This document shows positions 4,384 to 60,030 of a stretch of 60,868 nt of DNA, piece by piece. The position numbers were made by a program, and so were the translations under genes. The notes under the pieces are model-generated. The model saw only the letters and a list, made by a program, of their open reading frames with translations. It did not search any database and was not told the origin of the DNA. The stretch spans positions 1 to 60,868 of IMG/VR virus record IMGVR_UViG_3300037584_005633; one strand, written 5' to 3'. Origin of the DNA: a virus. Its lineage: Duplodnaviria; Caudoviricetes. The stretch's first letter is position 1. Every line of letters begins with the position of its first letter.

Positions 4384-4709
4384 TGAAAAATGGAAGAATA
4401 AAAGTACACACTAAAATGGGTGGTGGAATGAATAATTACACGGGCGGTGACATGATTAGAGCCAGAGTCGGTAAATCAATTGAAAAGAAAAAAAGTAATT
4501 TAAATAAAAAAACACCTATAAAAGATTTTATAAAAAATACTCTTGAAGGAAAATACATGGATAATAATAGAGGCACAGCAGAACCTTTAGATATTTTAAA
4601 AAAACATAGAATAAGAAAAAAAGTTGCACTACCAAATGCAAAAACAGGTAAATTAATTGGTAAACAAAAAAATCTACCATTACATTTACAGAAAAAAATA
4701 TTAGCGTAA
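4383..4709 (+). CDS. basic hypothetical protein
   Basis: Coupled ORF with repeated xxxG[GK] motifs. Confidence 0.7.
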   Translation: MKNGRIKVHTKMGGGMNNYTGGDMIRARVGKSIEKKKSNLNKKTPIKDFIKNTLEGKYMDNNRGTAEPLDILKKHRIRKKVALPNAKTGKLIGKQKNLPLHLQKKILA

Positions 4710-10804: not shown

Positions 10805-10833
10805 TTGCCTTTTAATTAAAGTAAGTGTATAAA
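10805..10833 (+). promoter_or_regulatory. sigma70-like promoter for second oxygenase cassette (probably leaderless)
   Basis: TTGCCT-17-TATAAA, 7 nt before ATG 10841. Confidence 0.55.
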
Positions 10834-10840
10834 CTTACTC

Positions 10841-11326
10841 ATGTCAATTGAAGTCATAGAAGATTTTTTACCTCAAGACGCTTTTACAAATTTACAAAAA
10901 TTTGTAATGAATAATAGTTTTCCGTGGTTTTATCAAGACTTCGTGATTGATGAAAAAGATCCTTTAGATAATATTTTTTTAGCACATTTATTTTATAAAG
11001 ATAACAGACCCAATAGCGAATTTTATGACATGGTTTGTCAGCCTTTCTTAGATAGATTAAAACCTAAAGCAATAATAAGAATAAAAGCAAACTTATATTT
11101 AAATCAACAAAAAATAATTAAACACAGAATGCACACTGATTTTGAATATCCGCATAAAGGTGCACTCTTCTTTTTTAATACAAATAATGGAAAAACCATA
11201 ATTGAAGATCAAGAAATAGAGAGTAAACAAAATAATTTAGTTTTATTTGATTCTTCAAAACCTCATGCTAGTACAACATGTACAGACAAGAAAGCAAGAG
11301 TTACTTTGGTTTTTAATTATTTATGA
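10841..11326 (+). CDS. 2OG-Fe(II) oxygenase (paralogue of 1300-1791)
   Basis: RIKANL..HTD..NG.T..H.S.TCTD..RV. Confidence 0.85.
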   Translation: MSIEVIEDFLPQDAFTNLQKFVMNNSFPWFYQDFVIDEKDPLDNIFLAHLFYKDNRPNSEFYDMVCQPFLDRLKPKAIIRIKANLYLNQQKIIKHRMHTDFEYPHKGALFFFNTNNGKTIIEDQEIESKQNNLVLFDSSKPHASTTCTDKKARVTLVFNYL

Positions 11327-40344: not shown

Positions 40345-40543
40345 GAGTCGTTACACTATAGAGATGTCGTTAAAAGATCATTTAATACCAGATTCAGGAA
40401 AGTATGCTGGTGAGGATATTCATAAGGTCATTGATGATGTACATACTGATTATGAGGACTCAAAAAACAAAAGAAGAAATATAGAATTAACTATTTACTA
40501 TCGTGACTTACTCTCTTTCCTTATTAAAAATTATGGGCACTAG
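40328..40543 (+). CDS. hypothetical protein
   Basis: Coupled ORF. Confidence 0.6.
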   Translation: MEKMSKSRYTIEMSLKDHLIPDSGKYAGEDIHKVIDDVHTDYEDSKNKRRNIELTIYYRDLLSFLIKNYGH

Positions 40544-40964
40544 TATTGCTTCGCAGCTATTGCAATCAGATGTAAATCCAGACACTAAACTTTGGAGAGG
40601 CGTATTGTGTAATGCAATTGAGGACGCACAACAAAAATCACAAGAACGTAAACCCTCGATTTTTAAGTGTGATGCACACGAATGGATCATGAGTAATGTA
40701 ACTGACTTTCATCAAGTATGTTATTACGCAGGTTTTGAACCTGAAGTTGTAAAAGAAAAATATAAAGTTGCTATCATGAGAGGCGATATTCAATTCTCTC
40801 CACGCAATTTTGCTTGGAAAAAATATTCACAACAATTTACTAAATACAGAAAATGCAAGGATCCAGAATCAAAATCATACCATCGTAAACATCTAGAACA
40901 TTTAAGAAAATGTGTTGATTTGTGTACAACTGTTTTTATATCGAATTTAGTTACTTCCCTATAA
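40533..40964 (+). CDS. conserved hypothetical protein
   Basis: LWRGVL.NA.EDA...W...DF..VC..AG. Confidence 0.75.
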   Translation: MGTSIASQLLQSDVNPDTKLWRGVLCNAIEDAQQKSQERKPSIFKCDAHEWIMSNVTDFHQVCYYAGFEPEVVKEKYKVAIMRGDIQFSPRNFAWKKYSQQFTKYRKCKDPESKSYHRKHLEHLRKCVDLCTTVFISNLVTSL

Positions 40965-41003
40965 ACGAAAAGGGCCAGCACAGTCTCCCGGTCTGGCCCT
41001 TCT
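40962..41003 (-). terminator. intrinsic terminator (minus strand, possibly bidirectional)
   Basis: AAGGGCCAG/CTGGCCCTT stem; minus-strand UUUUCGUUUA tail. Confidence 0.75.
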
Positions 41004-41045
41004 CCAACTAACTTAGAAAGAAATAATTACGGAACGTAATTATAA
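40962..41045 (-). ncRNA. candidate sRNA 2
   Basis: TTGACT-17-TATCTA promoter (41079-41051), 9-bp hairpin, U/C-rich linker, terminator; no ORF. Confidence 0.5.
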
Positions 41046-41084
41046 AATCTTAGATAGTAGTTCTATTGAAATAAGTCAAGTCAT

Positions 41085-41134
41085 TTTTCCTCCTATGTTA
41101 GATAAGGGAGCATAATATGAAAAACAAATCATAC
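41085..41134 (-). ncRNA. candidate sRNA 1
   Basis: TTGACA-17-TACTGT promoter (41169-41141); two small hairpins; anti-RBS/anti-AUG sequence. Confidence 0.45.
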
Positions 41135-41257
41135 CTGGTCACAGTATCGTGGTGCGTCATTGATGTCAAAGTAATAATTACTTTAGAATCGTTCTAAATT
41201 AGTATTTACCCACTGAACGGGATCGGTAGGTTAAAAAGCCAATAAACACGTGACACG

Positions 41258-41506
41258 CTCCTAGAACCAGCCATATACCCACTGCTTAGAAAAAAAATTT
41301 ATTATTTTTTTCTTAAAACTTAAGAAAATATCTAGGAGTCTAGGAATTTTAGTCTATTTACTTTGATACATAAGGGTTTTTTTACTCCTAGAACCAGTAA
41401 AAAAGCTAGGAGTACTCCTAGAAAAGCTAGGAATATTCATTTCTCTTACGAGCAAGCTATACAAAAAAATTACAGGGTATTTTATTTTCTAAGGAAGAGG
41501 TATATA
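41258..41506. repeat. CTAGGA/TCCTAG iteron cluster with palindrome (origin or packaging site candidate)
   Basis: 7 copies; CTCCTAGAACCAG x2; perfect CTAGGAGTACTCCTAG 41406-41421; A/T tracts. Confidence 0.75.
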
Positions 41507-41514
41507 GTAATTTC

Positions 41515-42027
41515 ATGCCCAAGAAAGCAAATCAATTGAAGACAATATCTGAATTAACACCAAAACAACGTAAGTTTGTTGATATATATGTAGCAAACTA
41601 TGGCGAGATTTCGAAGGTTGAGGCAGCTAAACAAGCAGGCTTTACCTCAACTAACAAGTATGGTCCAACAGATCAGGCTAGTAGATTATTAAACCCTGAT
41701 AAAAACCCACATGTCGTAAGATACTATGAAAAACGTATGGCACAAGAATTAGAAAAGGAAGAAAAAGATAAACTCCTGTCGTATAAACATTATGCTCGAA
41801 TGAGAGACACATCAGAAAAAAAAGGCCAAATGACAGCTGCAATAACAGCTCAATTTAGAAGAGATCAAATGGCTGGTCATTTTGTAGATAGAAAAGAAAT
41901 TAGTCATATTGGATTAGAGGGTATGTCTAGAGAACAATTGGAGAAACGACTTGAGGAACTTGAAAATAAGATCGGAGACGCCAAAAACATCATTGACGTT
42001 ACGCCAGATCAAATTACTGAAAACTAA
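41515..42027 (+). CDS. terS: terminase small subunit
   Basis: LTPKQRKFV..Y..AAKQAG..ASRLL HTH pattern. Confidence 0.85.
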   Translation: MPKKANQLKTISELTPKQRKFVDIYVANYGEISKVEAAKQAGFTSTNKYGPTDQASRLLNPDKNPHVVRYYEKRMAQELEKEEKDKLLSYKHYARMRDTSEKKGQMTAAITAQFRRDQMAGHFVDRKEISHIGLEGMSREQLEKRLEELENKIGDAKNIIDVTPDQITEN

Positions 42028-42127
42028 AGATTGGAAAGATTTCTTGACAGTCTTCAACGAAGTACATAATAGTACTCTTGTGACATCCATAGGTGTTGTT
42101 TCAATTAAAACAAAGGATGATAAATGA
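41993..42127 (+). CDS. possible 44-aa hypothetical protein (not in track)
   Basis: TTG start; fills gap; ATGA coupling to next gene. Confidence 0.4.
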   Translation: MTLRQIKLLKTKDWKDFLTVFNEVHNSTLVTSIGVVSIKTKDDK

Positions 42128-42456
42128 AAAGTAAAAGACTTTTGAAAAAAACAAAACACATTGATGTAAACATAAAATTCCCAAAAGAAAAAATAGAACA
42201 TTATCCTTTTGTAGAGGTGCATTGGTTGGATATCGTAGGTGAAACGGGTTGGCAAACTTTTGAACAGCTTAAGAAGTCACAACTTGGTAGAATGATTTCA
42301 CGAGGTTGGATGGTTTCACGTGCAAAAGGTGTTACTAGGATTTTTGCTGACTATGGACTCAAAGATGGAAGAGATGGAGATGAAGGTCATATTGAAACTA
42401 TTGGTGGCACTACTATTATTCCTAATTCAGTAATTACAAAGATCGTGAGATTATAA
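42124..42456 (+). CDS. conserved hypothetical protein
   Basis: V.WLDI...W...S.GW...IP..VI. Confidence 0.75.
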   Translation: MKSKRLLKKTKHIDVNIKFPKEKIEHYPFVEVHWLDIVGETGWQTFEQLKKSQLGRMISRGWMVSRAKGVTRIFADYGLKDGRDGDEGHIETIGGTTIIPNSVITKIVRL

Positions 42457-42668
42457 TGGATCTTATTTTGTTAAATGATGGCTTGTATCAACTTGTAGCT
42501 GTAACTCAAGAGATGATGAAAGGTATAGAGATTATGGCTGAAGTGGATTGTTTTGATTTATGCGATATTCTTAGATTACACCTTACTACATATTACGATG
42601 CACCCCATAATGTTCATGTTATGAATAATGGTACAGGAGACTTTTACGGCTGCATTTGCAATTCTTGA
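42456..42668 (+). CDS. hypothetical protein
   Basis: Coupled ORF; CFDLC..GCIC. Confidence 0.7.
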   Translation: MDLILLNDGLYQLVAVTQEMMKGIEIMAEVDCFDLCDILRLHLTTYYDAPHNVHVMNNGTGDFYGCICNS

Positions 42669-42679
42669 CCGATTTAAAA

Positions 42680-43063
42680 ATGGCTCAAAGCAAAGAATCT
42701 AAGCTGTGGAATGACATTAAAAATTTAGATAGAGATTGGCATTTTACTCGCATAGAATCTAGCACAATTAATGGTATTCCCGATGTACATTGTGTCGTAA
42801 ACAAGCAAGTATTTTGGCTTGAACTCAAAGCGAACACCAGCAAGAATTGTGGCTTGTCAAAGTACCAAATCAATTGGCATATTAAATACTTGAAAGCAGG
42901 TGGTAAAGCGTATATCTTGAATAGGCCCCTCTTGCACGCGCCTATTGAACTTCTGGCCGTGTCCCGTGAATCCCGAATCCCCGTCATTATCCGCAAGTCC
43001 CACGACTTGAGGACCCTGGTTCAGGAGGCAGCTGGCCATCCTTCACCGGGATCTGGGGCGTGA
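42680..43063 (+). CDS. VRR-NUC / Holliday junction resolvase-like nuclease
   Basis: ESKLW..RIE..GIPD..WLELK..Q..W. Confidence 0.85.
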   Translation: MAQSKESKLWNDIKNLDRDWHFTRIESSTINGIPDVHCVVNKQVFWLELKANTSKNCGLSKYQINWHIKYLKAGGKAYILNRPLLHAPIELLAVSRESRIPVIIRKSHDLRTLVQEAAGHPSPGSGA

Positions 43064-43310
43064 ACCCCGTCCCGTGAAGAAAGCCCGTAGTTGCTTGATT
43101 ATTTGATCTTGACAGGAGCTGGCCAGGCGAGCAGCTGGTAAACCTGAAGCCCGATGCCGTTGGAAACCCCATAGTTCCCTGCTTTTTTCAACTGCTCTGG
43201 GACCCAGATGCTGGCAGCAGGTAGCTCGTTTCCCACCCCCACGTCCCGAATGGATCAGGGGTTTGCTTTTGAACTCATAAAGCTCTGGCCAGCAACCAGC
43301 AGCGTAACTT
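42960..43310 (+). repeat. GC-rich bipartite repeats (CCC[A]CG/CCCGT clusters alternating with CAGC/CTGG clusters), block 1
   Basis: About four units roughly 80-100 bp apart; GC far above genome average. Confidence 0.65.
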
Positions 43311-43341
43311 GTGCTTCAGGAAAAGTTCTGAAAAATAGTTC

Positions 43342-43370
43342 TTGACATTTATCCCATGTAATCTTATGTA
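43342..43370 (+). promoter_or_regulatory. sigma70 early promoter containing ATCCCAT/ATCTTAT boxes
   Basis: TTGACA-17-TATGTA. Confidence 0.7.
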
Positions 43371-43376
43371 AGGTCT

Positions 43377-43420
43377 GCGCACGGCAATGGTGTTGAACTA
43401 ACCATTCAACTGCTGTGCGT
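43377..43420 (+). ncRNA. structured 5' leader
   Basis: GCGCACGGCA/TGCTGTGCGT stem enclosing interleaved ATGGT/ACCAT and GTTGAA/TTCAAC pairings. Confidence 0.55.
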
Positions 43421-43441
43421 TAACTAACAAAGGAGAAACAA

Positions 43442-43522
43442 ATGAATACAATAATACCTGAACTAATCTTTGCAGCCCTATGGTTTGCATTACTAACAGT
43501 GACGGGGGTGATCATATGGTAA
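43442..43522 (+). CDS. 26-aa single-TM peptide (not in track)
   Basis: AAAGGAG RBS; MNTIIPELIFAALWFALLTVTGVIIW. Confidence 0.65.
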   Translation: MNTIIPELIFAALWFALLTVTGVIIW

Positions 43523-43848
43523 AGCACATTATGCGTGACCCACTAGAGTCAGAAGAAGCCAAATGGGAGGAGGAGAACAATGTGGCATGGTCCTGTCCCC
43601 ATCACGGTAGAGAAACTTATTTTAATATCAAGAAACTTGAGAGGTCGCGTAAGATGCGGGAGTACGTCTACGTGTGGTTTAAGGACAAAGAGTTCGGAGA
43701 TGAAAAGATGTGGGTGAGAATCACATCGGGTGATAGATCTCGTGGACAGGGAGTCTTAGACAATCAGCCAATTAAGCTTATGTTCATGAAGCTCGGTGAT
43801 ATCGTTAAGTTCAAGACTGACGATGATGGTATCACTTGGGGGAAGTAA
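43516..43848 (+). CDS. DUF2314/YegJ-like protein
   Basis: EKMWVRI...GVLDNQP....GD.V.F. Confidence 0.65.
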   Translation: MVKHIMRDPLESEEAKWEEENNVAWSCPHHGRETYFNIKKLERSRKMREYVYVWFKDKEFGDEKMWVRITSGDRSRGQGVLDNQPIKLMFMKLGDIVKFKTDDDGITWGK

Positions 43849-43965
43849 GTGTTATGGATACTAGCCCTCGCAACACCGCTCATATTCTTTCCGAAACAAG
43901 CAGGATGGGTTTACATCCTGCTGCTGGCAGCTTTGATCCGAGGCTGCACTGGAATCTTTCACTAG
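43849..43965 (+). CDS. 38-aa membrane peptide (not in track)
   Basis: GTG start; LWILALATPLIFFPKQAGWVYILLLAALI. Confidence 0.5.
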   Translation: MLWILALATPLIFFPKQAGWVYILLLAALIRGCTGIFH

Positions 43966-44165
43966 TCTGCCCCCACGCCCACGATCCCCGTGATGCTGGA
44001 GCTCTAGAAGAGACAGCTTCTGCCTGGCCAGCTGGGAACTGGCAGCTGGTAGAATGCACCGGTAAGTACGAGTTTGCAAGGGTTTCTGCCCCCACGCCCA
44101 CGCTGCATCAGCATCAGATTACCTGAATGTTAAGCTAAGGGTCCCAGCAGCCGTCAGGGAGATGC
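43966..44165 (+). repeat. GC-rich bipartite repeats, block 2
   Basis: TCTGCCCCCACGCCCACG at ~43966 and ~44085, each followed by CAGC/CTGG-rich tract. Confidence 0.7.
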
Positions 44166-44197
44166 CGGTGGCGTAAAAAAGTTTTGGAATTTTTTAG

Positions 44198-44226
44198 TTG
44201 CAGGGAGTGATGGGATTTGATAAGAG
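44198..44226 (+). promoter_or_regulatory. sigma70-like promoter containing ATGGGAT/ATAAGA boxes
   Basis: TTGCAG-17-TAAGAG after A/T tract. Confidence 0.5.
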
Positions 44227-44259
44227 TTAGCAAACTAACTAACAAAAGGAGAAACAACT

Positions 44260-44763
44260 ATGGGCTTTGATTTATATAGTCTAGGCAATCATAAAAATAA
44301 GAATGGCGAATACTTCCGAAATAATGTTTGGTGGTGGCGTCCCCTCGCTGACTTCGTATGCGAAAAAACAAACTGCATTGAAGAAGCTGACAAGAAGAGT
44401 TGGCAACACAATGACGGACACGAAGTTGATGAGGTACTAGCAAAACAAATCGCAACGCAATTAAAAGCGTTAATTAAAAGTGGCGAGGTGTCAAAGGCAA
44501 TAAAAGAAAACGAGGAAATGCAAGAAGAAGCTGAACGCAATAATAAATTTGTTCAACGTTGCCACGATATGTTAGCAAAGAAAGTTGAAAAGGAACAAGG
44601 TAAGACAAACCTTGCACCTGCTGACTATCCGAAAGACGATCACGATACTTGGGATTGGATACAATCTAAATATAATTATGGAAGTTCCTACCCTTTCACA
44701 ATGGAAAACGTAGAGGAGTTCATAAAGTTCTGCGAAGATTCACGAGGCTTTAGAATTTGCTGA
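44260..44763 (+). CDS. conserved early protein
   Basis: Strong RBS; MGFD..G.YFRNNVWWWRPL..YPF..ENV.EF..F...S.GF. Confidence 0.85.
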   Translation: MGFDLYSLGNHKNKNGEYFRNNVWWWRPLADFVCEKTNCIEEADKKSWQHNDGHEVDEVLAKQIATQLKALIKSGEVSKAIKENEEMQEEAERNNKFVQRCHDMLAKKVEKEQGKTNLAPADYPKDDHDTWDWIQSKYNYGSSYPFTMENVEEFIKFCEDSRGFRIC

Positions 44764-44784
44764 CAACCTGCGAAGCGTGGGCTA

Positions 44785-44860
44785 ACGCCCACGCCCACGC
44801 CCACGCCCACGACAGCGTGGGGTTGGATAAAGTAAGCTGTAGCTGCCCAGCACCAGTTAC
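44785..44860 (+). repeat. (ACGCCC)x4 tandem plus CAGC tract, block 3
   Basis: ACGCCCACGCCCACGCCCACGCCCACG. Confidence 0.8.
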
Positions 44861-44943
44861 CAGTCGTGGAAGTTCGGACCAAACTATGATGTTTTTATTT
44901 GTAATACTTATATTTATTTTTTTCTTTTTAATTAAATTAATTG

Positions 44944-44980
44944 TTGATTAATCTTTTTTTATTTCTTATATATATGGGAT
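44944..44980 (+). promoter_or_regulatory. sigma70 promoter with ATGGGAT box
   Basis: TTGATT-17-TATATA-T-ATGGGAT. Confidence 0.7.
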
Positions 44981-45009
44981 AACAATTAACTTATGAAAGG
45001 AAAAATGTT

Positions 45010-45357
45010 ATGAGCAATCTAAAAAAAGTCGCAAGACTTATTAAGAAAGCTACAAAAAAAGAACAACAAGACATAGTGAATTATCACTATTCTGTTGAAC
45101 AAGTTAAGTCACAAAAGAAAGCAAATGACTTAATCAAACCATCTCATATTGAGTTGTTTGAAACTTTGAAAACAAATCTAATCATTATAAATAAAGTTGA
45201 TGATGTTGAGGGCTTTGCTCAATTAATCAAAAGAAAAATGAAAAGGTTTGATGTTGCTAAGTTCAAAGAAAAGCACCCAAAAATGTACGAGGAATTTTTG
45301 GTTGATATGGACACAACAGAAATTAAAATCAAAGTTCAAGAGAAAGGACAAAACTAA
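45010..45357 (+). CDS. early protein
   Basis: RBS; RFDVAKFKEKHPKMYEEF motif. Confidence 0.8.
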   Translation: MSNLKKVARLIKKATKKEQQDIVNYHYSVEQVKSQKKANDLIKPSHIELFETLKTNLIIINKVDDVEGFAQLIKRKMKRFDVAKFKEKHPKMYEEFLVDMDTTEIKIKVQEKGQN

Positions 45358-45358
45358 T

Positions 45359-45622
45359 ATGAGTAATCTAATCAAAATGGTTAATCAAATAGTTGAGAAT
45401 AAAGCTAACTCAAATGAAGTTGAACAAGCGAGTACCAATTCAAGTTCAACAACATTGAATTATCAATTCATGTACAAACAATTAGAAAGTGCTGTTGAGG
45501 AAATTATTATTCAGTATCCTAATGACCCAATTGTAAATGAGTTGAAAGCAAAGTTAGTTAATAATCTAAAACCTATTTTAGAAATGATAACTAACGACCC
45601 AAATCAAAACTTTGACCAATAA
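45359..45622 (+). CDS. early protein
   Basis: RBS; start reassigned to MSNLIKMV. Confidence 0.75.
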   Translation: MSNLIKMVNQIVENKANSNEVEQASTNSSSTTLNYQFMYKQLESAVEEIIIQYPNDPIVNELKAKLVNNLKPILEMITNDPNQNFDQ

Positions 45623-45656: not shown

Positions 45657-45853
45657 ACACTCTACCTTCACCACTATCACCACCTGCACCACCTTCGATA
45701 GAGGTACCAAATCTAGTTCCAATCTCAAACTAAAACACAAAATCTAGTTCCCACGTGCAACTTGTAGATGTAACTAGGCGCGCGGGCTAAAAACTCAGTT
45801 ACATAGATGTATAGAAATTTTAAACGATATGGATTATATTGAAAGGGGACCCA

Positions 45854-47329
45854 ATGCAAAAAGAATTACTGACTACTGACCAGCTAAGAATAGCTGTAGA
45901 GAAAAAATGGATTGAGCACATAAAGTTGTGCCAAGATAATTTTATATATTTTGTAAAAGAAGTATGGCCTGATTTTATATGTAGATTGGATCCTAATCCT
46001 AAAAAGTGGGGGCATCATCAACATATAGCTTCTGAGTTCACACAGATTTCAAAAGAAAAAAAAGGAAGGCTCATTATCAATATGCCTCCTAGACATACTA
46101 AATCAGAATTTGCTTCATTCTTATTTCCTGCATGGATGATAGGGAAGTACCCTGGATTAAAAATAATGCAAGTTTCTCACAATGCAGAGTTATCATCAAG
46201 GTTCGGATCTAAGGTTCGTAACTTAATGGAGCAGAGGGAGTATAAACAGATCTTTGGAGATGTTAAACTAAGAGAAGATAGTAAGGCTAAAGGACGTTGG
46301 GAGACTAATCATGGTGGCGAATATTATGCAGCGGGGGTAGGCGGTTCTATCACAGGACGAGGGGCGGACTTACTTATTATCGATGATCCACATACTGAGC
46401 AAGATGCTATGTCAGAATCAGCCATGGAGCGAGCATACGATTGGTATGTATCAGGACCAAGACAGCGTTTACAACCTGGTGGCTCGATAGTCGTGGTTAT
46501 GACTAGATGGGCAGAGGACGACCTGACTGGTAGATTAATCAAGGCTCAGAAAGAACCCAAAGCTGACAAATGGAATTTAATTTCTTTTCCTGCAATACTA
46601 GATTCAGGTAACCCTGTATGGCCTGAGTATTGGGAACTAGAAGAATTAGAAAAAGTAAAAGCATCACTTCCTATTCGTAATTGGTCTGCTCAATATATGC
46701 AGAACCCAACCTCAGAAGAAGGAGCAATTCTTAAAAGAGAATGGTGGTTACCTTGGGAGTCAGAGCATATACCAAAGTTACAACACGTTATTCAATCTTA
46801 TGATACAGCATTTAGTGCAAAAGAAACCGCAGACTATTCTGCCATTACAACTTGGGGTGTCTTCTTTCCAAAGGAAGATGGTAAACCTGCAATGATTCTA
46901 TTAGATGCATTGAAAGGTAAATTTGATTTTCCTGAGCTCAAGGCTGTAGCATTAGAACAATACAAATATTGGGAACCTGAAACAGTAATTATAGAAGCAA
47001 AAGCATCTGGAGAACCATTAACACAAGAATTTAGAAGAGTAGGCATACCTGTTACACCTTACGTTCCATCTCGTGGAAAAGATAAGCATTCAAGGGTAAA
47101 TGCGTGTGCTCCTGTATTTGAAAGTGGAGGTATTTATTATCCTGAAGGCGAAAGATTTGCAGAAGATGTAATTGAAGAATGTGCTGCGTTTCCTCACGGA
47201 GCTTACGATGACTTTGTCGACAGCACCACACAAGCCGTGTTAAGATACCGACAAGGTAGATTCATAGAAATGTTAGATGACTATGAAGAGGAAAGATATA
47301 ACATTCCGAAGGAGTATGTATATTATTAA
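45854..47329 (+). CDS. terL: terminase large subunit
   Basis: MPPRHTKS, IIDDP, TRW..DDL.G, SYDTA, IEAKASG, DDFVDS. Confidence 0.95.
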   Translation: MQKELLTTDQLRIAVEKKWIEHIKLCQDNFIYFVKEVWPDFICRLDPNPKKWGHHQHIASEFTQISKEKKGRLIINMPPRHTKSEFASFLFPAWMIGKYPGLKIMQVSHNAELSSRFGSKVRNLMEQREYKQIFGDVKLREDSKAKGRWETNHGGEYYAAGVGGSITGRGADLLIIDDPHTEQDAMSESAMERAYDWYVSGPRQRLQPGGSIVVVMTRWAEDDLTGRLIKAQKEPKADKWNLISFPAILDSGNPVWPEYWELEELEKVKASLPIRNWSAQYMQNPTSEEGAILKREWWLPWESEHIPKLQHVIQSYDTAFSAKETADYSAITTWGVFFPKEDGKPAMILLDALKGKFDFPELKAVALEQYKYWEPETVIIEAKASGEPLTQEFRRVGIPVTPYVPSRGKDKHSRVNACAPVFESGGIYYPEGERFAEDVIEECAAFPHGAYDDFVDSTTQAVLRYRQGRFIEMLDDYEEERYNIPKEYVYY

Positions 47330-49575
47330 TGTCAGGATTAAAAGAATTAATGGAACAGGAAAGGCTTGAGGACGAGCCTACGTCTACAGTTCCTAAAGTC
47401 AAATCAGATTATACAGAACCTTACGAACCGTCAGCCATTAAAGGTTTAGCTGGGCTCGCGGTCGCTGGTGCGGGAGCCTTTGCTCTTAGAAACCCTATCG
47501 GTAGAGCCATTAGTAGAATTGCAAATCTTAGAACACCCAAGGCACCACTATCACGGAACACGAAGCCAGTTGTTGATGAAGTTGATGAGGTGTTAACAAT
47601 CGCTCCGACTAAAGTTGATAGAGGTAGAGCGGTAGCTAAATTATCTCAACAGGAACAAATACGACAAGAAGCAATTGAAAGATCTAATGAACTGAAAAAA
47701 ATTGCGTACATGAAACCCTTATCTCGTGGTGGTAAGACAAACAGAATTGGATCTTCACTTTGGGATTATATTGCAAGACACCCAATTGCAGGTGCAAGAA
47801 AACCAAGTGAGTGGATTAAAGATTTTAAATCTACAGGTCCTGGATCCTTTAAGACAGGTAATCCTGAATTTAAAAATATTTCACAAGCAGTAAAGAAAGA
47901 TGAGTTGTGGGATTCAAACATAGCTCAATTTGATAAACAAGGAAATCTTGTTGGTGGATTTTTAAAAGTTGCTCAAGAAAAAAATATTCCTCTTACAAAA
48001 ATGGATTTATTATACATCGTTGAGAAGTCACCTGTGAATAATCTTAAAACAAGAAAACTAAGAATGAATACTCAAATTGTTGATGAGGCAGAAGATTCTA
48101 TTGGTCAAATTAATTCTGCTCTTACAGACATTAGAAACAAGGTAGTAGCAATTCCTTCAAGAGGTAAGACTGAAGCTGAGATAGAAACTCTTGCGCAGCT
48201 TGTCAAAGATGCTACAGCAACACAAAAGTCCTTAAATAAAATAGGAGCTAGAATAAATAACAAACTTAGAGTTGTTGAAAGCGATGATATTGATGACTTC
48301 AATAACATATTCTCAGCTGACATACAGGCATTTCAAAACATTGCAGACAAAGCAAGAAACGCTGGTGTAGCAATTGATCCGAATGATGTAACAAGAATTG
48401 TTAATTTTGCTAAAGGTAAAGAATTAGAAATAGGAAGAAAAGTCGGTCTAATGAAAACTCAAGGGTTTACTCCTAAGTATGGAAGTTATGGTGAATATAG
48501 AATAAAAGGTGGAGATAAATATTTTGAAGATGTAGTTTACTATCCAAAACCATTACCAATGGGTCAAAGATTACCAAGTGGTTATAACAACCACTATTCT
48601 GGAATTCCAAATCAAGTTTATCATGTCAGAGGCAGTATTAGAACAGGTGGTACAAACCCAAATCAAAAAGTTATGATGATTGATGAGATACAATCTGACT
48701 ATGCGCAAAAATTAAGAAATATAGATCCTACAAGAATGAAAGTTAAAAATGCTTTTGGTGCTGAGATAGAATTTTTTTCATCTAACAGAAAACTAGAGAA
48801 GATTGTTGAGGATATGAAAATGATTGCACGTAAAGGTGTTAATACCACTTCTGATGATATGTTTAGATTTAACAAACTTAAAAATGATTTTAATGAACTA
48901 AAAAGAAATTCTTTAAACCTCTCCAATATTACAAAACAAGAAGCAGGAGAAGGAATTCCATTCTTACCTTTATATGGAAAAGAAAACTGGGGAACACACG
49001 CATTGAAAAACACAATCAAGAATGCAGCTGATGAAGGAGTTGATTGGGTAGCTATTGCACCTGTGGAAAGACTCCACCATGCAAAACGATCTAAATATAT
49101 AGGTGACATTGAATTCTATGGAACGAGAACAGGTAAAGCAGGATTTAAAAACTATAGTGCAAACTCTAAAGCTAGAGGCGACTCTGAGGTAAGAGTATCG
49201 ACTGACCCAAACAAAAAAGCTACATTACCATCGGCTATGGATAAGCTAGCAAGAGAATACAATTCAGAAGTTGGAACAATACAAATAGCTAAGTCTGATC
49301 CCAAAAAACCATATAAGATAGTTACAAATGTGGGCACAAATAAAAAATTTGGACTATCAAAAGAATCTGAGGGTACTGAACATGTGGTTGCTTTTAGAAC
49401 TGCTGATGAAGCAAAGGTATACCAAGATAGATATGGTGGAGATGTAGTAGAGATTTTAGAGGGAGATCCAAGATTATACTTTGAAGCTTATGCTATCAAA
49501 GTGAACCCAGAAATGGCAACAAAACCATTCAAAGCATACAACACGGGCGGTCTAGTCGTAGATATATTTGCATGA
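47329..49575 (+). CDS. large hypothetical protein, probable virion cargo
   Basis: HY...HVR...IDEIQSD motif; ends YNTGGLV. Confidence 0.7.
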   Translation: MSGLKELMEQERLEDEPTSTVPKVKSDYTEPYEPSAIKGLAGLAVAGAGAFALRNPIGRAISRIANLRTPKAPLSRNTKPVVDEVDEVLTIAPTKVDRGRAVAKLSQQEQIRQEAIERSNELKKIAYMKPLSRGGKTNRIGSSLWDYIARHPIAGARKPSEWIKDFKSTGPGSFKTGNPEFKNISQAVKKDELWDSNIAQFDKQGNLVGGFLKVAQEKNIPLTKMDLLYIVEKSPVNNLKTRKLRMNTQIVDEAEDSIGQINSALTDIRNKVVAIPSRGKTEAEIETLAQLVKDATATQKSLNKIGARINNKLRVVESDDIDDFNNIFSADIQAFQNIADKARNAGVAIDPNDVTRIVNFAKGKELEIGRKVGLMKTQGFTPKYGSYGEYRIKGGDKYFEDVVYYPKPLPMGQRLPSGYNNHYSGIPNQVYHVRGSIRTGGTNPNQKVMMIDEIQSDYAQKLRNIDPTRMKVKNAFGAEIEFFSSNRKLEKIVEDMKMIARKGVNTTSDDMFRFNKLKNDFNELKRNSLNLSNITKQEAGEGIPFLPLYGKENWGTHALKNTIKNAADEGVDWVAIAPVERLHHAKRSKYIGDIEFYGTRTGKAGFKNYSANSKARGDSEVRVSTDPNKKATLPSAMDKLAREYNSEVGTIQIAKSDPKKPYKIVTNVGTNKKFGLSKESEGTEHVVAFRTADEAKVYQDRYGGDVVEILEGDPRLYFEAYAIKVNPEMATKPFKAYNTGGLVVDIFA

Positions 49576-59899: not shown

Positions 59900-60030
59900 A
59901 ATTTTTAAAAAAAATACTTGGAATTAATAAATTAGAATATAAAATTAGATTGTTAGAAAGAAAAGAATATTGGAGGACAAAATATAAACATGGCATATCT
60001 GAACGCAAACTTACCTCCAATATACTGTAA
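59893..60030 (+). CDS. possible 45-aa peptide (not in track)
   Basis: MLEFLKKILGINKLEYKIRLLERKEYW. Confidence 0.5.
   Translation: MLEFLKKILGINKLEYKIRLLERKEYWRTKYKHGISERKLTSNIL

Follow-up and report, generated by a model that had tools for sequence, protein, structure and literature searches.

The minus strand of the window (the whole stretch of 60,868 nt analysed here) carries, between positions 40962 and 41080, a short element that by a modest balance of probability is a stand-alone sRNA gene, the seed of which pairs with leaders of the phage's own genes and represses their translation. Its architecture, its strand, its seed and its complementarity to these leaders are conserved in two subclades of an abundant marine group of SAR11 phages, as shown here in silico. 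Production of the RNA, its binding and a repressive effect we infer from the sequence. To our knowledge, almost nothing is known about how SAR11 phages order their gene expression, and in the literature searched no RNA regulator was found for phages of SAR11. A conserved sRNA with a seed and a small set of leader targets would be the first such regulator put forward for them and, if made, it would switch phage-gene translation without a protein regulator. Furthermore, three gene families without assigned function, here called A, B and C, become flagged as a co-regulated set, and the presence of a diverged version in the cultured phage HTVC023P, with its cultured host HTCC1062, makes the pairings of 15–19 bp predicted across the Shine-Dalgarno sequence open to experiment. 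We read the element as a new family of phage sRNAs of a kind already known; no Rfam family matches it.

Direct reading of the minus strand from 41080 to 40962 confirmed what the initial annotation had described, namely a promoter-like TTGACT-17-TATCTA, a 9-bp hairpin, a linker and a terminator, with no ORF. The -35 box CTTGACT (41080-41074) is invariant in 29 of 29 distinct sequences and is followed, after a 17-nt spacer, by the -10 box TATCTA (41056-41051). The 5' hairpin, ATAATTACG/TTC/CGTAATTAT (41043-41023), has 9 bp and in the RNA a UUC loop. Next comes the 18–20-nt linker with the seed, UUCUUUCUAAGUUAGUUG(G) (41022-41004), which is unpaired in the centroid fold; its core UAAGUUAGUU (41015-41006) is part of the single-stranded seed region. 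The U-tailed terminator (40962-41004) consists of an outer GC stem (5' arm 41004-40993, 3' arm 40978-40967), an inner stem CGG-GAGA-CUG with a GNRA tetraloop (40990-40981) and, after the 3' arm, the U tract UUUUCGUUU. With its 5' end placed by the -10 box and its 3' end by the U tract, the predicted sRNA has a length of about 80–85 nt (40962-41045, minus strand); the R1 covariance model matches 40962-41048 with 94.6 bits. A 96-nt RNA of the minus strand folds with -33.6 kcal/mol (z = -4.49, none of 200 shuffles being as stable), and the plus strand of the element reaches -24.5 (z = -3.76) in the same test. It is conservation and covariation among relatives, and not the single sequence, that lift the element beyond chance.

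No ORF of at least 30 aa exists on either strand over 40982-41353. The sole ORF touching the element in the program-made list, 40790..40981 (minus strand, 63 aa, GTG start), begins within the terminator and runs antisense to the plus-strand gene 40503-40964. A plus-strand ORF at 41117 (26 aa) was rejected as a gene, its length in relatives ranging from 1 to 52 aa without protein conservation. On the minus strand, an AGGAGG (41094-41089) followed by AUG-ACU-UGA (41084-41076) overlaps the -35 box, and the arrangement GGAGGAA-N(2-6)-ATGACTTGACT upstream of the sRNA is kept in 25 of the 29 distinct sequences. Neither a tRNA nor a tmRNA was found in the window. Rfam 15 gave no match at gathering score over the whole window, C4 (RF01695) included; at E up to 10 there were five weak matches within 40900-41560, all located in 41276-41482 and none on the element.

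The -35 box agrees with the sigma-70 consensus, which may not be that of SAR11, in five of six positions and the -10 box in four of six, the final T missing. A consensus scan did not list this promoter because TATCTA lacks T at position 6, and it missed the terminator because the loop is longer than the 8-nt limit of the scan. Across relatives only the leading TA of the -10 box is kept (TAATGG, TATCAG, TATGAT), and the box is weak in most (TAATGG); the same TATCTA is also the -10 box of the conserved gene A promoter in relatives. In the HTVC023P subclade the -35 equivalents are TTGACA, TTTACA or TTGACG, and 43 of the 45 distinct elements are preceded on the minus strand by a sigma-70 match of at least 9/12, compared with 21% of random windows and 9 of 45 on the opposite strand. 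The window and each of the 29 distinct sequences of its clade have a terminator with a U tract; in one subgroup of the HTVC023P subclade the 3' stem is followed by AUCUAAAAAA, without a U run. The terminator loop GGGAGACU is invariant, yet the same loop caps plus-strand terminators elsewhere in related contigs, and it was therefore rejected as a feature specific to the sRNA; its complement was not found in leaders. With a putative promoter and a terminator of its own and no conserved ORF on either strand, the element is predicted to be an independent transcription unit.

The sRNA gene sits in a 550-nt non-coding region. Its right-hand neighbour is terS (41515..42027, plus strand; PF03592, E = 1.1e-6; phrog_51), and to the left a convergent plus-strand gene of 153 aa without family (40503..40964) shares the terminator hairpin with it. 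The terminator abuts the stop codon of this gene (40962-40964); as the overlap comprises nothing but this stop codon and the terminator, the element is not a cis-antisense RNA of the OOP/sar type. The region next to terS also carries many CTAGGAG repeats and a palindrome. ArfA (PF03889) was not found in the record; nor was a T7-type RNA polymerase (PF00940), a weak blank since the control matched nowhere.

Among 44 terS-related contigs, 9 are truncated; the other 35 have at least 620 nt on the upstream side of terS, and each of these, like the window, has exactly one match to the R1 model, scoring 48.8–106.7 bits. Covariation in related genomes had been proposed as a check in the initial annotation. 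In a MAFFT alignment of the 29 distinct sequences, which was not fitted to the structure, 93.6% of the paired cells can pair, against 26.6–51.9% with slid partners; 12 of 21 pairs over both stems have changed on both sides, and none of 500 shuffles reached any of the five covariation measures. However, the sequences are related, so that shuffles and Fisher tests overstate their independence. Pairs changed on both sides make up 5 of 9 in the 5' hairpin, where three sequences have a U.G pair, and 6 of 9 pairs covary in the outer stem of the terminator. In the terminator, alignment columns 62-69 form a G.U pair in 29/29 sequences, and the minus-strand fold is the stabler one in 29/29 (-30.6 versus -20.6 kcal/mol) as well as in 42/45 sequences of the HTVC023P subclade. 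The invariant G.U pair and the fold energies identify the minus strand as the RNA strand. While the stems drift and covary, the linker between them stays fixed: CUUUCUAAGUUAGUUGG is nearly invariant in the 25 sequences of the main group, and GUUAG occurs in all 29. When the sequences are folded singly (MFE), 12 of 29 from the window clade and 16 of 45 from the HTVC023P subclade leave the seed fully unpaired, and the others pair a part of it. A loose pattern scan of viral contigs gave 80 loci, 23 of which match the model (new ones are L054, L076, L082 and L089); blastn of the element against the phage GenBank collection returned two chance-level matches only (E = 0.6).

A diverged version, composed of a hairpin, YCUYUUUGUUAGUU, a stem-loop and its own promoter, occupies the same place in HTVC023P and 55 related contigs. 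In HTVC023P (record MN698239) it is located after gp20, at the 3' end of this gene; the predicted RNA of about 85–95 nt would occupy about 10814-10908 there and finish at a U10 tract. When 43 diverged elements were put into one alignment, from which L172 (which looks coding) and L177 (without 3' stem) had been removed, RNAalifold returned no consensus pair. The structure was recovered within subgroups only: two subgroup alignments, covering 32 of the 43 sequences, were refolded, and the structure of the HTVC023P-like subgroup was judged from reading the alignment. A relic of a deleted minus-strand gene like gp20 was considered as the origin of the element and rejected in view of the invariant linker, of the covarying stems and of HTVC023P, which has both gp20 and, after it, the element. 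HTVC027P, a cultured relative of the HTVC023P-type phages that is described as lytic, has neither a model match nor an AACTAAC word in the 18 kb around terS. Therefore, the published HTVC027P transcriptome is no test of the sRNA. According to PMC12753301, HTVC027P has no RNA polymerase of its own.

The predicted targets A, B and C, which the initial annotation had taken to be early genes, lie between terS and terL on the plus strand, 2.4–4 kb away from the sRNA element, each with its own sigma-70-like promoter. Gene A, a 26-aa hydrophobic ORF (43442-43522) at 2.4 kb, is preceded by TTGACA (43342-43347), 17 nt and TATGTA (43365-43370), by a leader hairpin with AACUAAC in its loop (43392-43410) and by the predicted pairing site (43419-43439). 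The promoter of gene B (167 aa, 44260-44763) reads TTGCAG (44198-44203), 17 nt and TAAGAG (44221-44226), and the predicted site is at 44233-44255. For gene C (115 aa, 45010-45357), TTGATT (44944-44949) and TATATA (44967-44972), again 17 nt apart, precede a predicted site at 44982-45003 that covers the Shine-Dalgarno sequence. The three leader strings quoted in the initial annotation were found where it had placed them. The duplex with the gene C leader has 19 bp with one bulge and -19.8 kcal/mol (cofold ddG -16.0); gene B reaches -14.9 (ddG -11.7) and gene A -12.5 to -12.9 (ddG -12.0), compared with a cofold ddG between -4.6 and -6.6 in five TIRs taken as controls. No other of the 58 TIRs in the window pairs as well as gene C, whose -19.8 kcal/mol is reached by 2 of 300 shuffled linkers, and four TIRs score -14 or better where 0.96 would be expected. 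However, a scan of the whole strand also finds -19.6 twice within coding sequence, at 47602 and at 60014, so that the pairing energy alone is not exceptional. Words complementary to the seed show no enrichment over the window: AACTAAC occurs 13 times (11.8 expected), TAACTTA 18 times (18.8 expected) and ACTAAC 17 times (32.8 expected).

Searches of Pfam, PHROGs, PDB profiles and a protein atlas, as well as Foldseek against the PDB, gave no function for A, B or C. Genes B and C encode soluble-looking proteins; the best VIA match of gene B is the DNA mimic DMP12 with Z 6.0, below the noise guide, and the gene C model matches uncharacterised phage proteins only. The GC-rich spacer at 43060-43345 folds no better than its shuffles (z = -0.56).

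Comparing each contig's own linker with the gene families of the relatives (families with at least nine members), C, A and B rank first, with medians of -17.0, -14.2 and -13.2 kcal/mol versus -10.8 to -6.8 for the others. Thus, the leaders named beforehand, those of the genes at 43442, 44260 and 45010, turned out to be the three best-pairing families across relatives, and the same result was obtained independently in the HTVC023P subclade. There, gp23 is the orthologue of gene B and gp27 that of gene C, and gp24, gp27 and gp23 rank at the top in 56 loci. The HTVC023P linker GCCUUUUUUGUUAGUU pairs with gp27 over 15 contiguous bp (-19.3 kcal/mol), with gp23 at -16.4, with gp26 at -15.5 and with gp24 at -13.1 kcal/mol; the top four duplexes sum up to -66.4, versus -37.1 in shuffles, and none of 300 shuffles reaches this sum. 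Complementarity at the RBS is conserved across two diverged phage subclades. At least one leader of the motif-SD-ATG type lies downstream of terS in 60 of 62 loci with the element and in 3 of 9 without it, counts that are uncorrected for relatedness.

Linker and leader co-vary in some lineages but not in others. For gene C/gp27 the cognate pairs give -19.8 and -19.3, the swapped ones -10.6 and -11.0. In L016 leader A scores -13.0 with its own linker and only -6.3 to -9.8 with main-group linkers, and in L032 an A-to-G change in the seed meets CUAACC in the leader (cognate -13.0, main-group linkers -7.6 and -8.5). In contrast, L027 shows no cognate preference of linker for leader, leader A of L028 pairs worse with its own linker (-13.4) than with other main-group linkers (-17.5 to -21.5), leader A of the window scores -12.5 with its own linker but -21.2 with that of HTVC023P, and in L016 the gene C leader pairs poorly with the linker of the same contig (-9.3). 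From the earlier proposal of a trans-acting sRNA directed at the phage's own leaders, the complementarity stands in silico as a conserved property, and co-variation backs it in a part of the lineages only.

We propose that the host RNA polymerase would transcribe the sRNA leftwards from the sigma-70-type promoter at the left edge of the region upstream of terS, and that the transcript would end at the intrinsic terminator common to the convergent plus-strand gene. The RNA would then fold into the 5' hairpin, the unpaired seed of 18–20 nt and the terminator hairpin, a shape which covariation supports. In trans, the seed may bind short 5' leaders in three units that have separate promoters, those of gene A, a predicted 26-aa membrane peptide probably heading a small operon, and of genes B and C. 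The predicted pairing spans from the 5'-terminal word, AACUAAC or UUAACUUA, through the Shine-Dalgarno sequence. As a consequence, ribosome loading should be blocked and translation of A, B and C repressed.

The plus strand of the element, on the other hand, resembles a copy of a leader, with AACUAAC, a purine tract and AUG in many relatives, so that the complementarity could be a by-product of paralogy. AACUAAC and the purine tract would then be a leader cassette, a translational enhancer or operator read by a protein or by the ribosome, and the minus-strand sRNA would be incidental. Such a cassette may resemble the enhancer-type leaders of T7-like phages. The word is common to several leaders, the plus strand reads AACUAACAAAGAGG-N6-AUG in many loci of the HTVC023P subclade and AACUAACUUAGAAAGAA in the window. 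We regard this explanation as rather improbable, since no conserved plus-strand ORF follows the motif (its length varies from 1 to more than 13 aa; L178 reads AUG-UAA, and in the window an AUG is missing altogether), and in HTVC023P a plus-strand transcript would enter gp20 in antisense direction. The minus strand is favoured by G.U pairs and by fold energies, it alone has a conserved sigma-70-like promoter, and in most lineages it also has U tracts after the stem. The same promoter and hairpin might also act in cis as an insulator. In this case, plus-strand transcripts that run on from the gene cluster upstream towards the packaging genes would be stopped or destroyed through the minus promoter and the bidirectional hairpin, either by convergent transcription or by an antisense RNA of perfect complementarity, and in trans it would matter little which sequence the linker has. 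The terminator directly adjoins the plus-strand gene 40503-40964, the hairpin is followed on the plus strand by UUCUCC, or CUUUUCC in many relatives, and could end plus-strand transcripts too, and the position between gene modules is constant in 35/35 loci and in 56/67 loci of the HTVC023P subclade. However, an insulator needs no invariant 18-nt linker between drifting and covarying stems and leaves the tracking of the C/gp27 leaders by the linker in two subclades unexplained; furthermore, the left neighbour of the element varies among relatives. Such an insulator appears unlikely.

The sRNA may instead chiefly target mRNAs of the SAR11 host, an option that the initial annotation had also named, or titrate an RNA-binding factor of the host, and its matches to leaders of the phage would then be secondary. 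Precedents are the trans-acting phage sRNAs PreS and VpdS, which according to PMC12197685 act on host mRNAs. Here, among the phage sequences searched, the best partners of the seed are conserved leaders in two subclades and the presence of the element goes along with the presence of these leaders, which leaves a slim chance for the host as the chief target; targeting of host mRNAs need not exclude that of phage leaders. Very improbable is a site that acts as DNA, for packaging (as part of pac), for replication or for the binding of a protein, upstream of terS. The non-coding region beside terS with its repeats and palindrome would suit such a site, but the CTAGGAG repeats fall outside the element, and covariation with G.U pairs, strand-asymmetric stability, the promoter and the U tract are signatures of RNA.

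With respect to known systems, our preferred reading, a stand-alone sRNA pairing with the phage's own leaders, comes close to c4 of P1/P7 and CI of P4, in which unpaired stretches pair with repeated leader sites, among them an RBS of the phage's own genes, and block translation. These RNAs are processed from the transcript that bears their targets and serve lysogenic immunity. Unlike c4/CI (Rfam C4), the element is predicted to start from a separate promoter on the opposite strand, 2.4–4 kb from the targets. In type I toxin-antitoxin systems such as IstR-1/TisB, the sRNA pairs in the 5' leader of a message that encodes a hydrophobic peptide; gene A, a 26-aa hydrophobic ORF with a complementary leader, resembles this peptide class (about 26–30 aa). 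However, the sRNA lies 2.4 kb away, B and C look soluble and gene A has no family match. Lambda OOP and P22 sar, at about 70–80 nt, are similar in that each runs from its own promoter to its own terminator and converges with a phage gene; OOP reaches over the 3' end of cII (PMC12197685). OOP and sar act by full complementarity on the overlapping mRNA, whereas the conserved seed of the element matches distant leaders. VpdS of vibriophage VP882 and PreS of lambda are likewise short phage RNAs with their own promoter and terminator and imperfect pairing, here predicted, with several mRNAs, and PMC12197685 reports that VpdS affects both phage and host mRNAs. They belong to temperate phages of gamma-proteobacteria and are reported as Hfq-dependent, whereas the phages that carry the element are of the HTVC023P type. 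The element has no sequence or Rfam relationship with them and, unlike theirs, its predicted regulon consists of three to four promoter-proximal leaders of the phage itself with a common 5'-terminal word.

A bolder and doubtful extension, together with its variants as a timer or from a 3' UTR, is that HTVC023P-type pelagiphages possess a small post-transcriptional regulon replacing a protein regulator, in which the translation of three to four moron-like genes, each promoted separately between terS and terL, would be timed by a seed RNA made up of GUUAGUU and an anti-SD pyrimidine tract. As one unit starts with a 26-aa membrane peptide, this unit and the sRNA together could act as a phage-borne type I toxin-antitoxin system or as a holin-type timer with the sRNA as the brake. 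The seed RNA of HTVC023P, lying at the 3' end of gp20, suggests delivery also as a 3'-UTR-derived RNA.

With its 60,868 bases the window covers a complete viral record, which carries direct terminal repeats and has nearly all of its genes on the plus strand. The putative small RNA lies on the minus strand, within a non-coding gap of 550 nt (40965-41514) between a plus-strand gene for a 153 aa protein without family assignment (40503-40964) and terS (41515-42027; PF03592, E = 1.1e-6; phrog_51). Direct reading of the sequence finds promoter, hairpin, linker and terminator where the initial annotation had placed them: a -35 box CTTGACT (41080-41074), after 17 nt the -10 box TATCTA (41056-41051), a perfect 9-bp 5' hairpin (41043-41023), an unpaired linker (41022-41004) and a terminator hairpin (41004-40967; inner part CGG-GAGA-CUG), followed by UUUUCGUUU. 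The minus-strand RNA folds with -33.6 kcal/mol (z = -4.49), equalled by none of 200 shuffled sequences; the value for the plus strand is -24.5 kcal/mol (z = -3.76). Simple consensus scans of the window listed neither the promoter, since its -10 box lacks the final T, nor the terminator, since its loop as defined by the tool is too long. Rfam families matched nothing in the window at gathering score and, with E up to 10 over 40900-41560, nothing on the element itself. Judged from the window sequence alone, the case for the element would be weak.

In the phage GenBank collection the sole relative at the DNA level is the cultured Pelagibacter phage HTVC023P (79% over 165 nt of terS; 63% identity between the terS proteins). 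Via terS we gathered 44 viral contigs, whose terS identity is 84-97%, and a covariance model of the element was built on 29 distinct copies. The window has exactly one strong match to this model, and so does every one of the 35 contigs with 620 nt or more of sequence upstream of terS (scores 48.8-106.7 bits); the remaining 9 of 44 reach less far. All these matches are on the strand opposite terS. In the 29-copy alignment the -35 box is invariant and the promoter spacer unconstrained; both stems are variable and the linker nearly fixed, with CUUUCUAAGUUAGUUGG in 25 copies and GUUCUUUGGUUAAGUUAGAUAGG in a diverged group of four. The covariation suggested at the outset as a check was indeed found: in an unfitted MAFFT alignment both stems covary, with changes on both sides in 12 of 21 stem pairs, and 93.6% of cells are paired versus 26.6-51.9% when the partners are slid by 1-3 columns. 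Any of five structure measures was reached by 0 of 500 shuffles. One G.U pair is kept in all 29 sequences, next to many further G.U cells, a U tract follows the stem 3' on the minus strand, and the fold energy is better on the minus strand in 29 out of 29 (mean -30.6 versus -20.6 kcal/mol). Because of the G.U pair, the U tract and the per-sequence energies, we consider it settled, as far as sequence comparison goes, that the predicted RNA is read from the minus strand.

The three genes previously named as early (A, B and C, starting at 43442, 44260 and 45010) are situated between terS, which ends at 42027, and terL (45839-47329; phrog_38, E = 2.2e-112). Gene A is a 26-aa hydrophobic ORF (MNTIIPEL...GVIIW, 43442-43522), absent from the annotation and below the 30-aa limit of the ORF list. 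It heads a small operon, its stop overlapping the start of the next gene. A strict pattern finds it conserved in 16 loci, 14 of which have AACTAAC just 5' of the Shine-Dalgarno sequence. For genes B (44260-44763, model pLDDT 88.4) and C (45010-45357, pLDDT 85.6) sequence and structure searches gave no convincing family or fold; the structure nearest to B is the Neisseria DNA-mimic protein DMP12 (Z 6.0, under the noise guide of the tool), and the model of C resembles solely uncharacterised phage proteins. When the three upstream regions are aligned, a separate sigma-70-like promoter is seen in front of each gene (CTTGACA-17-TATCTA or TATGTA for A, CTTGAT or CTTGCA-17-TAAGAA-like for B and TTGATT-16/17-TATNNN for C), together with a leader of some 25-30 nt starting at AACUAAC or AAUUAACUUA. 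In relatives the gene A promoter has TATCTA as its -10 box, the hexamer that the small RNA promoter has in the window, which eases the doubt over that box of the small RNA. Just upstream of the three promoters there are GC-rich non-coding islands (43064-43340, 44127-44197 and 44764-44880), the first of which is no more stably folded than its shuffled versions (z = -0.56) and the last of which contains (ACGCCC) x 4.5 at 44785-44811. The word TGGGAT (44211-44216, 44975-44980), conserved in the promoter regions of B and C, may be a regulator site common to both.

The complement of the whole linker occurs only at the element locus itself, and short anti-seed words show no enrichment over the window as a whole; among the non-self plus-strand ACTAAC words, 7 of 13 fall within 41650-45595. 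The best non-self duplex on the whole plus strand (44982-45003, -19.8 kcal/mol) comprises leader and Shine-Dalgarno sequence of gene C, an energy that alone is unexceptional, since two coding sites reach -19.6. When only 58 translation-initiation regions are scanned, those of 57 crude gene calls and of the hand-added gene A, gene C ranks first, matched by 2 of 300 shuffled linkers, and four regions are at -14 or better versus 0.96 expected, a result attained by 10 of 300 shuffles. The other two leaders proposed at the outset, those of A and B, take the fourth and fifth ranks between them. When the full small RNA is cofolded with the leaders, the net gain is -16.0 kcal/mol for C, -12.0 for A and -11.7 for B, compared to -4.6 to -6.6 for five control leaders, and the predicted helix spans the Shine-Dalgarno sequence in three of three.

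Pairing was also compared over 29 distinct loci, each with its own linker against its own initiation regions and with genes grouped by orthology to the window; crude gene calls omitted some genes here, including terS and terL. The strongest medians belong to families C (-17.0, n = 16), A (-14.2, n = 20) and B (-13.2, n = 14), those of other families with at least nine members ranging from -10.8 to -6.8. Conservation in relatives, on which the initial annotation had made the idea depend, is seen for the near-fixed linker and for its predicted targets.

HTVC023P and its subclade provide an independent replicate. This phage has a minus-strand gene, gp20, at a place where the window has none, and the model match is marginal (19.9 bits in a large search; 20.8 bits, E = 0.0011, when 901 nt were searched). 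Directly 3' of the gp20 stop the same architecture is found on the minus strand (fold z = -6.3): CTTTACA-17-TAATAA, hairpin, linker GCCUUUUUUGUUAGUUAAC and a terminator with U10. The leaders of gp23, gp24, gp26 and gp27, all four between terS and terL, carry AACTAAC. With gp27 the linker forms a duplex of 15 contiguous bp (-19.3 kcal/mol), and it pairs with gp23, gp26 and gp24 at -16.4, -15.5 and -13.1 kcal/mol; the top-four sum of -66.4, versus -37.1 for shuffled linkers, was reached by 0 of 300. Gene B is orthologous to gp23 (44% identity) and gene C to gp27 (35%). Through the HTVC023P terS, 80 further contigs were gathered, and the element (hairpin, YCUYUUUGUUAGUU, stem-loop) is present in 56 of 67 loci with at least 700 nt upstream, HTVC023P included. 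A minus-strand sigma-70 match of at least 9/12 precedes 43 of 45 distinct copies, versus 21% of random windows and 9 of 45 on the opposite strand, and for 42 of 45 the minus-strand fold is the better one. RNAalifold found no consensus structure for 43 subclade copies in one alignment, which we attribute to the greatly differing stem lengths; two subgroup alignments recovered both stems and left the seed unpaired (18 pairs, 8 compensated; 17 pairs, 11 compensated). Family-wise, gp24 (-15.9), gp27 (-15.4) and gp23 (-15.1) rank first. In both clades together, 60 of 62 element-bearing loci have one or more motif-SD-ATG leaders in the 5.5 kb that follow the terS start, versus 3 of 9 loci lacking the element, a count that ignores kinship. 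HTVC027P, a distant representative of this type (terS identity 33%), has neither element nor motif leader within the 18 kb surrounding terS. A second weak match in HTVC023P (locus L001, 3504-3575, minus strand; 13.8 bits, E = 0.031 in the 901-nt search), directly downstream of the first element, consists of hairpin, UUCCUUUCU, GC stem and CUAAGUUAA without a U tract and may be a degenerate second copy. In the same subclade, plus-strand hairpin-plus-terminator elements about 3 kb downstream of terS, upstream of a gp25-like gene (contigs L210, 8767-8854, and L208, 2915-3003, and similar sites), carry the loop GGGAGACU of the small RNA terminator; this GAGA tetraloop therefore seems to be a habitual feature of terminators in these phages.

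Co-variation between RNA and target appears mixed but present in these comparisons. For gene C/gp27 the linker of each lineage fits its own leader (-19.8, -19.3) but not the other's (-10.6, -11.0). In relative L016 an altered linker fits an altered leader A (-13.0 versus -6.3 to -9.8 with main-group linkers), and in relative L032 a single seed change from A to G faces a C in the leader (-13.0 versus -7.6 and -8.5). On the other hand, the L028 linker lacks UUGG although its leader A retains CCAAC, L027 shows no cognate preference, the window leader A pairs better with the HTVC023P linker than with its own, and the gene C leader of L016 matches its own linker poorly.

We infer transcription, binding and repression as follows. 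Host RNA polymerase would produce a stable RNA of about 80-85 nt, shielded by 5' hairpin and terminator and with its seed exposed; the seed would pair with the word at the 5' end and with the Shine-Dalgarno sequence in three separately promoted mRNAs (four in HTVC023P), by which ribosome loading would be blocked. A trans-encoded base-pairing sRNA works by this logic. The c4/CI system, with anti-RBS sites on the phage's own genes, is among the closest precedents. These phages appear to lack an RNA polymerase of their own: a search for a T7-type polymerase domain found none in the window record, the control of that search being silent as well, and HTVC027P is reported without one (PMC12753301). 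The trans-acting VpdS and PreS are also among the closest phage precedents, and OOP and sar are like the element in size and layout but act in cis (review PMC12197685).

Alternatively, the conserved word could be a plus-strand leader motif bound by a protein or the ribosome, and the plus strand of the element does resemble a leader copy. However, the strand asymmetry favours the minus strand, which also carries the predicted promoter, a conserved plus-strand ORF is absent, and in HTVC023P the plus strand would run into gp20; these points make the plus-strand reading less likely. The leader-like plus strand is also a plausible starting point for the evolution of an antisense regulator. The element could also be a local insulator or act at the DNA level, or the RNA could chiefly target host mRNAs.

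The element is of a known kind, and with no Rfam match its family is new; among the listed literature on pelagiphage small RNA and on HTVC023P, with term look-ups in PMC12753301 and PMC9599517, no sRNA, antisense RNA, promoter or terminator turned up for these phages. Its interest lies in a very abundant phage group, a conserved predicted regulon and a testable version in the cultured HTVC023P.

Further features are located upstream of terS. Direct and inverted CTAGGAG/CTCCTAG repeats, eight or more of them (41268-41440), are conserved in 12 of 12 aligned relatives, with TTCCTAG repeats at the equivalent place in HTVC023P (about 4400-4600 of locus L001); the array looks like protein-binding sites that form either a packaging site or the operators of a regulator. 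The palindrome TTTAGAA-CGA-TTCTAAA (41182-41198) adjoins a possible second minus-strand promoter, TTGACA (41169-41164), 17 nt, TACTGT (41146-41141), whose -10 box is weak and which the consensus scan does not list. From it a longer RNA isoform might arise that includes the mini-ORF AUG-ACU-UGA. On the minus strand at 41076-41094, a perfect AGGAGG, a 4-nt spacer and this two-codon ORF overlap the -35 box of the small RNA, an arrangement kept in 25 of 29 distinct sequences, and the plus strand of this stretch reads UUCCUCCU, which is anti-Shine-Dalgarno-like.
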